The notes below the pieces were generated by a model. The model searched no databases, was not told where the DNA came from, and worked only from the letters and a program-made list of their open reading frames with translations. From contig CAZPJY010000008.1 in the NCBI GenBank assembly GCA_964587045.1, forward strand, positions 1 through 54,378: a DNA stretch of 54,378 nucleotides, in the 5' to 3' direction. Below are positions 9,431 through 40,192 of the stretch, piece by piece; within the stretch, counting starts at the first letter, position 1; every line of letters begins with the position of its first letter. Position numbers and translations under genes: made by a program. The stretch is from an uncultured Methanosarcinales archaeon (GTDB lineage: Archaea; Nanobdellota; Nanobdellia; Woesearchaeales; CAZPJY01).

Positions 9431-9549
9431 AGCCCCCGGTGGGAGTTGAACCCACGACCTGCGGATTGCTTGAAATCCGGAGATTCCATGCATCATAACC
9501 TCCGGTTGTTGTTACAAGTCCGCCGCACTAGCCACTATGCTACGGGGGC
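9431..9549 (-). tRNA. tRNA-Thr(TGT) with 46-nt intron at 37/38 (intron 9467-9512)
   Basis: GCCCCCG acceptor stem; GCGGA-CT-TGT-A^A-TCCGC anticodon arm; CTTG/CAAG central helix of a relaxed bulge-helix-bulge; mature length 73 nt. Confidence 0.92.
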
Positions 9550-28506: not shown

Positions 28507-29733
28507 CTATAAATCGCTGGCTGTCAGGAGCGTCAGCTTGGTTTCGGACGGCTTTACCTTGGAGTCCATGCTGACCAGGTACTTCAGCGAAGTGCGTTCG
28601 GCTGTCTTGCAAAGGTTCCTGTCGATGGAACCGTCGAATATCACCGCGAAGACACCGCTGGTCATTCCCTTGATGGTGGTCGGAAGCTCAGATACAGGGA
28701 CCTTGCCCAGGACGTTCATCTTGTCGTCGATGATGGTCGCACCCCTCGTTCCCACGAGGTTTTCGAGCATATCCTTGAACTTCACCTTCTGCTCCTCGCT
28801 GACCGGCGCTGCCCTCCTGTATGGCGGCTTGCTCGGAGGAGGACTCCTCTGCTGCTGCCGCGGCGGGTTTCTCTCTTCGTCCCTCCTGCCTCCGTTTGAC
28901 ACGCCCATGTCCAGCTTGACCTGCTCTGCCGCAACCTTGCTGCGCAGGGCCTTGTGGATCTCCTTTTTGGTTATCTCCTCGACCTCCTTTCCGTCAGGCG
29001 CTCGTGTGACAAAGTCGATTTCAGCCACCTGCATCAGCTCCTTGATGATCAGGTTGCCTCCGCGGTCGCCGTCTACGAACGCTGTGAGTATCTTCTGCTT
29101 GGAGAGCTCCTTGATGGTTTCTGGGACCGAAGTACCGTTGATTGCTATGCAGTTCTTGATGCCGTGCTTGAGCAGGTTCAGGACGTCGGCGCGGCCCTCA
29201 ACCACGATGACCTCATCTGACTCGTCGACAGCCGGACCTGCGGGCAGGCGCTCCTTGCCGTATTCAGTCACTTCCATGACCCTGACTGAGTAGGCCACCT
29301 CGTCTGCCAGCTCCTGGGAGTCTGGCAACACAGAATCAGTAAGCTGCTTGAGCAGCTCCTTTGCGCGGTCGATTACGAAGTTACGCTTCGAGATCCTCAC
29401 ATCTTCAATATTCTCCACCTTTATCTTGGCGTTGCAGGGCCCGATGCGTTGGATGATCTCAAGTGCAGCAGCGACGATCGAGGTCTCTGCCTTGTCAAGC
29501 GAGCTCGGGATGATGATTTCGCCCTTGGTCTTGCCGCCCCGGGTGTCGACATTGACCTCTATCCTGCCGATGCGGCCTGACCTCTGCAGCTCCCTGAGCT
29601 CAAGGTCAGAACCGAGCAGGCCTTCTGTCTGGCCGAAGATCGCCCCTATGACATCTGGGCGGTCGACTACCCCTTCGATTTGGATTGAAGCGTGAACTAT
29701 GTATTTGGCTGATACTGGGCTTATTTTTGCCAT
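28507..29733 (-). CDS. dnaG: Archaeal DnaG (TOPRIM primase-like, exosome-associated)
   Basis: [57 protein letters not shown] at 29741-29747. Confidence 0.96.
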
Positions 29734-29747
29734 TTATATTCCTCCTT

Positions 29748-30076
29748 ACTCAGAATAAGCTTAAGGCTCTCAATATCCCTCATACCCTGGCTGAACCCAA
29801 ACGGGATTAAAGCCCGAAATGACCTTATTTTAATGAAATAACAGTAAATGACCGTGATATTTATGAATATGCCTCAAAGCTTATTCGATTTGATGTTTAG
29901 TGATTATAATAGGGTTTGTTGCCCGAAACACTAACTCCCGAGTTCATAGCTTGACATCGTCGTTAGCTCCCGCGGGTACTCTCGTGACGGGCTGTTATAC
30001 GCGAGAGTGTCTCCGGTTCACGGCCAAAACAGACGTTTCAGCTCACAAAAGGACCCATTCGCGTATGGATTTTTGT
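29748..30076 (-). ncRNA. Candidate structured ncRNA / long 5' leader of dnaG
   Basis: No credible CDS; several stems (30045-30076; 29978-29984/30002-30008; 29897-29902/29929-29934; 29753-29767/29871-29886); begins about 23 nt after a TTTAAATA box. Confidence 0.55.
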
Positions 30077-30098
30077 ATATTAGGAAAGAGCTATCCGA

Positions 30099-30106
30099 TA
30101 TTTAAA
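30099..30106 (-). promoter_or_regulatory. TATA box for the putative dnaG leader transcript
   Basis: TTTAAATA on the minus strand, overlapping the epimerase stop codon. Confidence 0.55.
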
Positions 30107-31025
30107 CTTGTTGGTAACTCTGGACAGTCATCAGAAGGCCGCTCTCGAGCTCGTATTTCGGCTCCCATCCGAGGATTCTCTTGGCAAGATTGTTGTCCAG
30201 GCAGCTCCTCTGCAGTTCCCCAGGCCTCACATGGGCATAGACAGGTATCTTGTCATAACAGCCCGAGAAGGTGCCCTTCAGCCTCTCGAACACTTCGTTC
30301 ACGCTCGTTTCCACGCCGGTCCCGATATTGATGGAAAGCCCATCACCCCTCGCCATCGCCAGTACGTTGGCCCGCACGACATCATCCACAAAGACGAAAT
30401 CCCTGGTCTGGTCCCCGCTGCCGTATATGACCACCGGATCGTCCTTGAGCATGGCCTCGGTGAATATCGCGACAACTCCGGCCTCGCCTTTGGGGTCCTG
30501 CCTTGGCCCGTAGACATTTGAATACCGTAAAATCGTGTATGGGAGGCCCTTGACCTCCCCAAAAAACCTTATGTAATTCTCAGCGGCTAGCTTTGCTATG
30601 CCATAAGGTGCTGCCGGCAACTTCTTTGCATCCTCCCTCGCTGGGAGGTGGATGTTCTCCGCGTAGAGCGCCCCTCCTGTGCTTGCGAAAATGAATTTCT
30701 TGACCCCGAATGTGAGGGAGATGTCGAGAAGGTTGAGCGTTCCCATGATGTTGGTATCGGCGTCTAAGCCAGCATCCGACACTGATTTGCGAACATCGAT
30801 CTGGGCGGCGTGGTGGTCGACGACGTCTGGCTTGAAATCCATGAAGACAGCCCTGAGAGTGCCGCTTCTCACATCCAGATTATAGAACTCTGCTTTTGGG
30901 TTTACGTTCTCTTTCCTGCCCGAGCTCAGGTTGTCGGCAATCGCTACTGTGTGCCCGTGCTCGATCAGCCTGTCGACCAGGTTGCTGCCGATGAATCCGG
31001 CCCCGCCTGTTACCAGTACTCTCAT
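30102..31025 (-). CDS. NAD-dependent epimerase/dehydratase (UDP-glucose 4-epimerase-like)
   Basis: TGGAGFIG, HHAAQIDVR, YGIAK (YxxxK), RYSNVYGPRQ, QTRDFVFV. Confidence 0.92.
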   Translation of the reverse strand: MRVLVTGGAGFIGSNLVDRLIEHGHTVAIADNLSSGRKENVNPKAEFYNLDVRSGTLRAVFMDFKPDVVDHHAAQIDVRKSVSDAGLDADTNIMGTLNLLDISLTFGVKKFIFASTGGALYAENIHLPAREDAKKLPAAPYGIAKLAAENYIRFFGEVKGLPYTILRYSNVYGPRQDPKGEAGVVAIFTEAMLKDDPVVIYGSGDQTRDFVFVDDVVRANVLAMARGDGLSINIGTGVETSVNEVFERLKGTFSGCYDKIPVYAHVRPGELQRSCLDNNLAKRILGWEPKYELESGLLMTVQSYQQV

Positions 31026-31096
31026 CTTGCGAAGGGGTTATATCTGACTATTTTTATGCCTTGTCTTTTAATATAACTTATTCCCTCCCAAACCCG

Positions 31097-32050
31097 ATGA
31101 ACATAAAGGACATGTTGTTGGGGATAGCGATAGGAGACGCCTTCGGAACTGGGATAGAGTTCCAGGACAGGCAGTGGATACTGGACAACGTGGACTTCAC
31201 CCGCTACATCAACAAAAGGGAGGGCAAATACGCCCGCGGCTACACCTTGGGAGACTACAGCGACGATACCGAGATGACAGTAGCCCTTATGAAGGCCCTG
31301 ATGAGCGGGCGGGAGGTCACGCCCGAGCTCCTCGTCGCTGCCTGGAAGCAGGAATACGACGATGGTAGGATGATGAGAGGGGGTGTGCCCAGGGCAGGAC
31401 ACGGCTCGATCCGCTTGTACTTCGACGGGGAGGAGACCCTCGAAAACGTCCGGAAGTTCCAGCACAGCAGGAAGTACCCAGGCAATGCCCCGCCGATGAG
31501 GGCAGTGCCTATCGGCCTTATGGGGGATGGCCTTGTCCGCTGCGCCGCAGCCAACGCTGAAGCCACACACCCCCACCCAAAAGCCCTTGCTGCCAGCGCC
31601 ATTGTCGCCTACGCTGCGGAGTACGTGATGGTGAAGGAAGGAGACCCTTCCTGCATAATACCCTACTGCAGATCGAAGACCAGCACGATTGACGAGGAGA
31701 CTTACGAGTACCTTGGAAGGGTGGACAGCCTAGATGAATTCGACCTGGAGACGATCTGCGGACCGCAACCGGTGAAGGAAGGCGTGAATGGAGTCCCTGC
31801 CAGCTCGATGCACGTGGCCGGAGCGGCGCTCTACATCCTCTCGAGACGTGCAGACCCGTTCGAAGCCCTGAAGGAGTCCGTAAGATTCGGAGGGGACGTC
31901 GACACACTTGCCGCGATAACTGTCGGAATAGCAGCAGGCAGGCACGGCCTGCGCTCTTTGCCGGGCTTCCTACTCGAAGGGCTCAGGGAAAGGGATTATC
32001 TTGAGGAGATCGCTGAGCGGTTCGGCAACTGGCTCTCGACAACTTTATAA
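31097..32050 (+). CDS. ADP-ribosylglycohydrolase family protein
   Basis: GIAIGDAFG, YSDDTEM, GNAPPMR, TH, GGDVDT. Confidence 0.9.
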   Translation: MNIKDMLLGIAIGDAFGTGIEFQDRQWILDNVDFTRYINKREGKYARGYTLGDYSDDTEMTVALMKALMSGREVTPELLVAAWKQEYDDGRMMRGGVPRAGHGSIRLYFDGEETLENVRKFQHSRKYPGNAPPMRAVPIGLMGDGLVRCAAANAEATHPHPKALAASAIVAYAAEYVMVKEGDPSCIIPYCRSKTSTIDEETYEYLGRVDSLDEFDLETICGPQPVKEGVNGVPASSMHVAGAALYILSRRADPFEALKESVRFGGDVDTLAAITVGIAAGRHGLRSLPGFLLEGLRERDYLEEIAERFGNWLSTTL

Positions 32051-32073: not shown

Positions 32074-32772
32074 ATGGCAAAGCGTTCGCTGGAGAAATTC
32101 AAGACGTACAAGAACGTCTTCGACAACCATACTCTCAGGGCTCTTTACAAGCTGGCGACGGAAGGCCATTTCGATGAGCTGGTCTCCCCGGTGACGTTGG
32201 GCAAGGAAGCAAACATCTTCGTAGCCGACAAAGGAGATAGCGAGGTGATCGTGAAGATATACCGTCTCGAGGTCGCGGATTTCACGAGGATGTACAGGTA
32301 CATCAGGGGCGACCCCAGGTTCATGGGGCTTGCGGGAAGCAGGCGCAAGGTCATCTTCGCCTGGTGCCAGCGCGAATTCCGAAACCTCCTGCTCATGAGG
32401 GAGCTGGGCGTCCCCGCACCGACCCCGATCGCATTCAAGGACAATGTTCTCGTGATGGAGATGATCGGCGAGCCAGCGCCCCTCGTCAAGTACGAGAAGC
32501 CCAGAGACGCTAAGGGTTTCTTCGATATATTGACCGATGCCATGCGCAGGATGCACAAGGGGCAGATAGTGCACGGCGACCTTTCCGAATTCAACATAAT
32601 AAACGACAAGGACAAACCAGTGCTCATCGACTTCTCCCATGGTACTCCGAAGGCGAGCCCGATATATGCGGAATTGCTGGAGCGCGACATAGCAAATGTC
32701 TCGAGATTCGCTTCCAAATGCGGAGTGGACCTCTCAGTCCAGTCGTTGCGGGCAAAAATCGGCTTACCATAA
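32074..32772 (+). CDS. rio1: RIO1-family atypical kinase
   Basis: GKEANIF, VKIYR, WCQREFRNL, HGDLSEFN, IDFS. Confidence 0.93.
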   Translation: MAKRSLEKFKTYKNVFDNHTLRALYKLATEGHFDELVSPVTLGKEANIFVADKGDSEVIVKIYRLEVADFTRMYRYIRGDPRFMGLAGSRRKVIFAWCQREFRNLLLMRELGVPAPTPIAFKDNVLVMEMIGEPAPLVKYEKPRDAKGFFDILTDAMRRMHKGQIVHGDLSEFNIINDKDKPVLIDFSHGTPKASPIYAELLERDIANVSRFASKCGVDLSVQSLRAKIGLP

Positions 32773-32804
32773 AGCTTATAATGTGGCCTTCCTTTTCACT
32801 TGAC

Positions 32805-33344
32805 ATGGATGAGTTTTTGTACCAGCTGAAAATCCCAAAGGAAAGGGTCGCAGTGCTGATCGGCAAGAACGGTGAGACCAAGAGGATGATAGAGGAGGCT
32901 ACCGGAATCGAGCTCGACATTGATTCCCATGAGGGCGATGTCAGGCTCGTCGGTGATGATGCTCTCACACTATACACCGCTCGTGAGATAGTGAAGGCGA
33001 TAGGCAGGGGTTTCAATCCCGACCTGGCGATGATGCTTCTCAAGCAGGATATGACCCTCGAGATAATCAATGTTGGTGATTTCGTCAAGAGCAAGGGTCA
33101 GCTGATGCGCCTGCGCGGCCGGGTAATCGGCACCGAAGGCAAGTCGCGCAAGACTGTCGAGGACCTCACCGAGACCAACATATCGGTCTACGGCAAGACC
33201 ATATCTATCCTGGGCTCTGTCGAGAGGGTCGAGCTTGCCCGCAGAGCTGTCGAGTCGCTCCTTTCAGGGAGCATGCACTCGAACGTGTACAAGATGCTCG
33301 AGAAGAGACGACGAGAGATGCGCATGAAGCAGATGGAAGAGTGA
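32805..33344 (+). CDS. KH-domain rRNA-processing protein (Dim2/Pno1/Krr1-like)
   Basis: [39 protein letters not shown]; follows rio1. Confidence 0.92.
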
Positions 33345-40065: not shown

Positions 40066-40192
40066 GCGGGGGTAGCCAAGCGGCTAAGGCGATCGGCTGC
40101 AGCAAACTTGTTTGCTGGAACCTCGGTATGATGAGCTTCGGCGATGATTTGTGGATACCGATTATTCGTGGGTTCGAGTCCCACCTCCCGCT
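40066..40192 (+). tRNA. tRNA-Cys(GCA) with 54-nt intron at 37/38 (intron 40103-40156)
   Basis: GCGGGGG/CTCCCGC acceptor stem, U discriminator; ATCGG-CT-GCA-G^A-CCGAT; BHB helix CTGC/GTGG with AG^C and AT^A bulges; T-tract follows. Confidence 0.9.

Follow-up and report, generated by a model that had tools for sequence, protein, structure and literature searches.

A conserved RNA upstream of archaeal dnaG is very probably a two-hairpin box H/ACA guide with predicted targets in helix 69 and the A-loop

The DNA directly upstream of dnaG in an uncultured archaeon (GenBank assembly GCA_964587045.1, contig CAZPJY010000008.1, whose 54,378 nt are called the window below) very probably encodes, at positions 30068-29917 of the minus strand, a conserved two-hairpin archaeal box H/ACA guide RNA with predicted targets in helix 69 and the A-loop of 23S rRNA. 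This RNA displays every defining feature of H/ACA guides that could be tested, the search for Gar1 apart, and is an unannotated guide of a known class rather than a new RNA class, belonging to no Rfam family. Between it and dnaG lies a separate conserved leader module, made of a long stem and a UCAY-rich stretch, and as we model the region a cis-regulatory role is possible only for this 3' part (29916-29734). The initial annotation had proposed a single novel structured RNA of some 340 nt, acting as a riboswitch or as a DnaG template. A structured RNA is indeed present upstream of dnaG and is conserved, but the region does not form a single new element of that length, and its 5' ~160 nt are better read as a box H/ACA guide with rRNA-complementary pockets.

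The literature searched, with most subscription journals and bioRxiv supplements outside its scope, yielded no description of this RNA or of a link between H/ACA guides and dnaG.

Locus and gene setting

The guide/dnaG unit and its surroundings comprise the following features.

31025-30102, minus strand: NAD-dependent epimerase gene, 5' neighbour of the guide/dnaG unit
30099..30106, minus strand: TATA box of the guide RNA gene, predicted transcription start near 30076
29993..30068, minus strand: H/ACA hairpin 1, predicted target 23S U2555 (A-loop)
29917..29992, minus strand: H/ACA hairpin 2, predicted target 23S helix 69 U1915/U1917
29753..29886, minus strand: separate conserved dnaG leader module, stem 29886-29871 with 29767-29753
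29741..29747, minus strand: Shine-Dalgarno (SD) sequence of dnaG, AAGGAGG, 5 nt past the 3' stem
28507..29733, minus strand: archaeal-type DnaG, 408 aa, Toprim domains
32718-33344: Dim2/Pno1-like gene

The TTTAAATA box at 30106-30099 (minus strand) coincides in part with the epimerase stop codon, the end of that gene being at 30102. This TATA-like box, the long-range stem, the SD sequence and the dnaG start had all been placed correctly in the initial annotation, which also counted the region among the longest non-coding stretches of the window. The gap before dnaG is free of ORFs over 368 nt and ranks sixth among the 10 gaps of at least 250 nt (a ranking based on ATG ORFs of at least 150 aa only). 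GGAGG is enriched in 99 dnaG spacers, where it occurs 75 times versus 12.7 expected, and an anti-SD 16S tail was seen at 10/10 loci of relatives. A scan of the region for sigma-70 promoters and terminators, which is unsuited to archaeal signals, gave nothing useful.

Genes for Rio1, a Dim2/Pno1-like KH protein and topoisomerase VI lie on the opposite strand, from 32074, and the epimerase gene together with an ADP-ribosylglycohydrolase gene (window 30102-32050) separates this divergent Rio1-Dim2-Top6B-Top6A group from the guide and dnaG. In many relatives a divergent ORF of ~236 aa is found directly upstream of the guide, and its size and start sequence indicate that it is probably Rio1. Four loci of relatives (L009, L014, L017 and L019) share a motif starting CACCTCTTTT and followed by a hairpin, located after the divergent gene and ahead of the promoter of the guide; this motif may be part of the leader of the divergent operon.

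At gathering score, no Rfam family other than four tRNAs is found in the window, and even at E<=10 the locus gave only a chance lncRNA match (E 3.5) and no H/ACA family. The initial annotation saw no RNase P hallmark motifs; the locus has no match to RF00373, and the RNase P RNA of this genome was located on contig C16. No other copy of the guide was found in the same genome. As for tRNAs, two matches in the window, of 119 nt (9431-9549, minus strand) and 127 nt (40066-40192, plus strand), were returned by Rfam and not by ARAGORN; the former carries an insertion of ~48 nt in the anticodon arm, and both are probably intron-containing.

Conservation and linkage to dnaG

Among 41 genomes of as many families, 39 gave a DnaG match, and 30 dnaG loci, likewise of separate families, were fetched. 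A hairpin of ~72 nt, corresponding to hairpin 2, was matched by pattern at 29 of these 30, at 95-572 nt from the dnaG start codon, and the remaining locus carries a diverged version, so that the proposed conservation upstream of orthologous dnaG genes holds and is far beyond chance. A model of hairpin 2 (R1) finds a single copy in 76/78 genomes of the same order and in 94/101 overall; in a sample of 151 genomes spread over the class, it matched 43 and missed 108. Among 21 dnaG loci taken mostly from these misses, five have a diverged hairpin at E<=0.001 and two more a weak match, and several have a protein gene directly upstream of dnaG. Many genomes of the class have dnaG with no guide directly upstream. 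At five loci of distant genomes (L196, L206, L207, L211 and L214) dnaG is immediately preceded by a small ORF, with a diverged guide standing in front of that ORF at L196, L206 and L211.

Matches of the pattern scan come chiefly from records titled Woesearchaeota, Nanoarchaeia or Nanoarchaeota and from many titled uncultured Methanosarcinales, on which basis the window is probably Woesearchaeota-like. Some contigs titled Alphaproteobacteria, Acidobacteriota or Methanosarcinales (including L068 and L078) carry the guide and a DnaG that is ~67-85% identical to that of the window, which suggests that they are mislabelled or misbinned Nanoarchaeia contigs.

When the search started from the motif, dnaG was downstream at 77 of 80 loci (those of the 119 motif loci with long flanks), and the three without dnaG also lack a closed P1 stem by the pattern used. 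Likewise, 29 of the best 30 model matches across the class have dnaG downstream, including 13 of the 14 outside the order; the guide is separate from dnaG in genome G050. The spacer between the two is 95-575 nt long (99 spacers), and since a U-tract after the guide (7/99) and a TATA-like box within the spacer (17/99) are both rare, guide and dnaG are likely to share one primary transcript. The position of the TATA box shifts together with the RNA's 5' end: among 42 loci with no hairpin 1, 20 have a TATA-like box at 30-33 nt from the start of hairpin 2, on its 5' side, and among 32 loci with hairpin 1, 24 have it at 102-132 nt. The tight tie to dnaG and the RNA's own TATA box, both part of the initial annotation, are borne out. 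The available portion of PMC2643942, which discusses the neighbours of dnaG, makes no mention of such an RNA.

Hairpin architecture

The elements of the two hairpins, all on the minus strand, are as follows.

30065-30059/30004-29998, minus strand: hairpin 1 P1
30058-30052 and 30010-30005, minus strand: hairpin 1 pocket strands
30051-30045/30017-30011, minus strand: hairpin 1 P2
GA 30044-30043, bulge 30022-30020, GA 30019-30018, minus strand: hairpin 1 K-turn
29995-29993, minus strand: hairpin 1 ACA
29992-29984/29931-29921, minus strand: hairpin 2 P1
29983-29977 and 29936-29932, minus strand: hairpin 2 pocket strands
29976-29971/29942-29937, minus strand: hairpin 2 P2
GA 29969-29968, bulge 29948-29946, GA 29945-29944, minus strand: hairpin 2 K-turn
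29919-29917, minus strand: hairpin 2 ACA

The succession of a lower stem (P1), an internal pocket and an upper stem (P2) is borne out by covariation in both hairpins. For hairpin 2, in an alignment (A2) of 21 of the 30 dnaG loci, which omits eight with long apical insertions and L030, 92.6% of cells are paired and 9/20 pairs show two-sided changes; none of 500 shuffles equalled this, and slid controls reached 22-44%. The two strands of its pocket are nearly invariant while the stems vary. Hairpin 1 was matched at 51/119 motif loci, and its alignment (A3) contains the window and 47 of these 51 matches, the remainder being dropped by a length filter, as duplicates or, in the case of L150, as a near duplicate. 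Here, over 48 rows, 87.9% of cells are paired, versus 34-48% in slid controls, with two-sided changes at 17/18 pairs (0/500 shuffles), and the pocket strands are conserved.

Both hairpins keep the tandem GA, the 3-nt bulge and the flanking stem of a K-turn. In both hairpins of the window the distal G:A pair is 9 positions from the base of P2, where the rule for archaea is a K-turn or K-loop in P2 with that pair at 9-10 positions (PMC7075261). An ACA follows the stem of hairpin 2 in 73 of the 107 motif loci with a closed P1, and the triplet after hairpin 1 is ACA in 25/48 homologues and NCA in 22. The distance expected of the class is 15 +/- 1 nt from the target U to the ACA; it is 15 nt from the pocket of hairpin 1 to the ACA position in 47/48 homologues, and for hairpin 2 it is 16 nt with U1915 unpaired and otherwise 17 nt.

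As for the protein partners, genes for Cbf5, Nop10 and L7Ae were found in the same genome, Cbf5 being above its curated cut-off there and in 29/31 class genomes. The Gar1 profile (PF04410), which matched three of four control archaea, has no match in this genome, whose assembly is also devoid of SRP RNA and of most of the 23S rRNA.

Other hairpins occupy the place of hairpin 1 at six loci (L165 in G016, L168 in G148, L195, L197, L201 and L203), and some of these start with GGCAAGG and resemble H/ACA hairpins with different pockets.

Predicted rRNA targets

When the hairpin 2 pocket was compared with five whole 23S rRNAs of relatives, from which the target was read (the genome's own helix 69 falls in an assembly gap), the best site was the loop of helix 69 in 5/5; with a shorter 3' pocket strand helix 69 came first in only 4/5, narrowly. 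In E. coli numbering, based on the annotated 2904-nt 23S, the pocket would pair with U1911-U1915 and from A1919 onward, leaving 1916-1918 or 1915-1918 unpaired.

Guide and target vary together. The target ACUCUC is found with the guide strand GAGAGU in 10 genomes, AUUCUC with GAGAA[U/A] in two, ACCUUC with GAAGG[U/C] in four and ACCCUC with GAGGGU in one, while G061 is imperfect, and all 18 genomes pair at at least 5 of 6 positions. The 5' pocket strand of hairpin 2 thus tracks three separate helix 69 substitutions, in a set of genomes that are related rather than independent and whose distant guides were chosen from weak model matches and by eye. These 18 are the genomes readable on both sides among 23 with a 23S locus (G107, G060, G041, G048 and G021 being left out). 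The conserved loops follow changes in the rRNA, and complementarity to the rRNA explains them. Two of the 23S loci (L038 and L039, in G024 and G007) have genes of 3209 and 3646 nt with insertions, one of which begins right after helix 69; these insertions are likely rRNA introns.

For hairpin 1 the A-loop is the best site in the 23S rRNA of 5/5 relatives, and the genome's own A-loop, in the 23S sequence on contig C30, ranks first among two qualifying sites genome-wide. The predicted duplex has 6+6 bases (11 Watson-Crick pairs plus a single G-U) that flank an unpaired UC, whose U is U2555. In 9/48 homologues a C replaces the first A of the 3' pocket strand, which leaves U2554 also unpaired, and since the most 5' unpaired U is the one modified (PMC7075261), these nine would act at 2554. 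Three 23S loci (L224, L226 and L227, in G052, G060 and G041) have a C in place of U at 2555 in the A-loop, and these genomes would therefore have no need of hairpin 1.

The leader module upstream of dnaG

The long-range stem of the initial annotation (29886-29871/29767-29753) is real. It belongs to the module at 29753..29886, which encloses a UCAU/UCAC-rich stretch starting at 29866. Over the 99 spacers, TGTTCT occurs 74 times versus 4.7 expected, TCAT 384 versus 196 and TCAC 213 versus 94. The 3' arm of the stem is present in 81/99 spacers, and in 55 of these the upstream complement beats shuffles at p<=0.05. Within the loops of the 56 strong stems, 137 copies of UCAY fall in the initial 45 nt and six in the remainder. 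Departures from perfect pairing (42 G-U, 10 A-C and 21 other) favour a stem that forms in RNA of the dnaG strand. Support comes mainly from one-sided G-U changes, few being two-sided, of which the stem in the window carries one relative to the consensus. By eye, many loci seem to have a further module of this kind immediately ahead of the SD sequence, and UCAY-rich leaders are kept in some distant genomes with a diverged guide. Neither a conserved terminator nor an alternative helix was seen in the 3' module, and no leader of this kind (stem plus UCAY) was found in the literature searched. A third H/ACA hairpin was considered for this module and rejected by eye, since it would lack both a K-turn and a conserved second strand of the pocket, and its loop would measure 34-156 nt.

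The balance tips slightly towards the 3' stem and its UCAY motifs being a protein-binding signal, used in processing of the guide or in control of dnaG translation. Our best guess for the ligand, prompted by the resemblance of the UCAY motif to the 3' tail of 16S rRNA, would be Dim2/Pno1 or another protein with a KH domain. At 10/10 loci UCAC occurs in the 16S tail, similar to the UCAC/UCAU repeats of the leader, and the structure of a Dim2 homologue (aDim2p) has been solved with a 3' fragment of 16S rRNA (PDB 3aev; title cited in PMC12127562). The window also encodes a Dim2/Pno1-like protein (32718-33344). The genome contains 18 clusters with at least four UCAY per 50 nt outside long ORFs, the dnaG leader being one of two with five. 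A UCAY regulon was looked for and discarded, no common gene set being found among the 18 clusters.

Alternative explanations

That the whole region would be a riboswitch-like or autoregulatory leader of dnaG, switching between helices, is very improbable, despite the near-invariant position of the guide upstream of dnaG, the likely single transcript (U-tract in 7/99 spacers, TATA-like box in 17/99) and, in this window, a 3' stem that ends 5 nt before the SD sequence. For the two hairpins this reading fails because their conserved loops track the rRNA sequence. In addition, the guide lies apart from dnaG in G050 and in Nanoarchaeum equitans, the spacer ranges from 95 to 575 nt, and the partners that a switch would use are rare: the second CGGGC copy was found in 6/99 spacers and the CACTAA of a proposed TTAGTG/CACTAA helix in 3/99. 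The first CGGGC copy, thought to form a pseudoknot, is actually the nested lower stem of hairpin 2, and the first hairpin once drawn (ACAAAA...TTTTGT) has the complement that it needs in 3/48 homologues. The proposed ACTCTCG/CGAGAGT helix, which could favour a switch, is possible in 26/48 homologues, but what it joins is the two guide pockets. Folding energy over the whole 340 nt is like that of shuffles (z -0.98), the values by domain being -2.25 for hairpin 1, -1.49 for hairpin 2 and -3.03 for the 3' stem domain. A related idea, in which DnaG would form a ribonucleoprotein with this RNA as its stable partner or its template, is scarcely credible: it draws on the synteny of RNA and dnaG and on the association of archaeal DnaG with exosome components (PMC2643942), Rrp41/42-like exosome core genes having been matched here below the family cut-off, but the H/ACA model accounts for all conserved features of both hairpins, many genomes of the class have dnaG and no such RNA upstream, and no template-like conserved element was seen.

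A guide of H/ACA type might also pair with pre-rRNA as a folding chaperone without making pseudouridine at these sites, which would fit the missing Gar1 match, the imperfect ACA boxes and the atypical 3-4 unpaired bases at hairpin 2. We judge this unlikely by a wide margin, considering that Cbf5 is above its curated cut-off, that the ACA spacing of hairpin 1 is constant to the base and that Haloferax has an active guide with the same atypical geometry at helix 69 (PMC7075261). A divergent SRP RNA, finally, has a negligible probability. What could speak for it is that the genome has no match to RF01857 or RF00169 despite two SRP54-family genes (C3:10489-11061 and C2:53061-53642, FtsY also being present, with a completeness score of 100%). 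However, among 40 genomes of the same order, most of which also have the dnaG RNA, 39 encode a normal archaeal SRP RNA at a separate locus, and a motif scan gave no convincing SRP helix 8, so that this reading was rejected. Since these 39 relatives have an SRP RNA, the lack of a detectable one here, in a genome where most of the 23S rRNA is also missing, is probably an assembly gap.

Proposed mechanism and significance

Transcription of the guide would start near 30076 and continue into dnaG, and the ~160-nt guide would be freed either by cleavage or by early termination, its 3' end then being trimmed. It would likely assemble with Cbf5, Nop10 and L7Ae, upon which (i) hairpin 1 is predicted to direct pseudouridylation of U2555 in the A-loop of 23S rRNA and (ii) hairpin 2 is predicted to direct pseudouridylation at U1915 and/or U1917 in helix 69, where it would act like the 3' stem-loop (SL2) of Haloferax sR-h45, with 3-4 target bases unpaired. 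A more speculative scheme, which we consider rather doubtful, is that dnaG serves as host gene for the helix 69 guide of Nanoarchaeia, and that binding of the leader motif by a KH protein (Dim2/Pno1) or by the DnaG-exosome would choose between release of the guide and production of DnaG, coupling rRNA modification to RNA turnover. If this were true, one transcript would combine a guide, a UCAY leader that mimics the 16S tail and the message for an exosome subunit.

An annotation gap is filled by these findings, as model R1 finds a guide that has no Rfam match and is single copy in 76/78 genomes of the same order, and specific rRNA pseudouridines (helix 69 and A-loop) can be predicted in uncultured DPANN archaea. 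As a guide the RNA is unremarkable, and what may deserve attention is its near-fixed link to dnaG and the conserved stem-UCAY leader in between.

Comparison with known guides

Several known guides act, or are predicted to act, on the same regions of 23S rRNA. We take Afu4, Pab40 and Pf7 to be Rfam HgcG, and positions 2601 of A. fulgidus and 2647 of P. abyssi presumably correspond to U2555, by an offset of 92 based on E. coli Rlu positions. Unlike the guide described here, Afu4 has three motifs; the targets of its motifs 2 and 3 are the same, in the same order, if 2601 is U2555. These three-motif H/ACA sRNAs target helix 69 with motif 3 (PMC2377435, PMC4652768), and motif 2 of Afu4 has been proposed for A. 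fulgidus 2601, or P. abyssi 2647 (PMC4652768, PMC2377435), an assignment that PMC2377435 disputes, preferring 2632.

The sR-h45 RNA of Haloferax volcanii resembles the guide in its architecture of two stem-loops, of which the 5' one targets domain V and the 3' one, leaving four target bases unpaired, forms both pseudouridines of helix 69 (1940/1942) (PMC7075261).

The most detailed likeness is with N. equitans, in which a 159-nt box H/ACA sRNA is the sole expressed H/ACA sRNA (Randau, 2012; PMC3491384). Like the guide, this sRNA has two K-turn hairpins with nothing but an ACA as hinge between them, a length of ~160 nt and its own TATA box. Its stem 2 is identical to hairpin 2 at 22/26 and 27/31 positions in the two arms (by eye), with the same 5' pocket strand, whereas the pocket sequences of its first hairpin are other than those of hairpin 1. 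It lies between NEQ389 and NEQ392, not beside dnaG, and is followed by a T-stretch terminator. The targets predicted for stem 2 were 23S U614 and 16S U796 (Randau, 2012; PMC3491384). By our reading stem 2 would target helix 69, which suggests a revision of the target published for N. equitans to this site.
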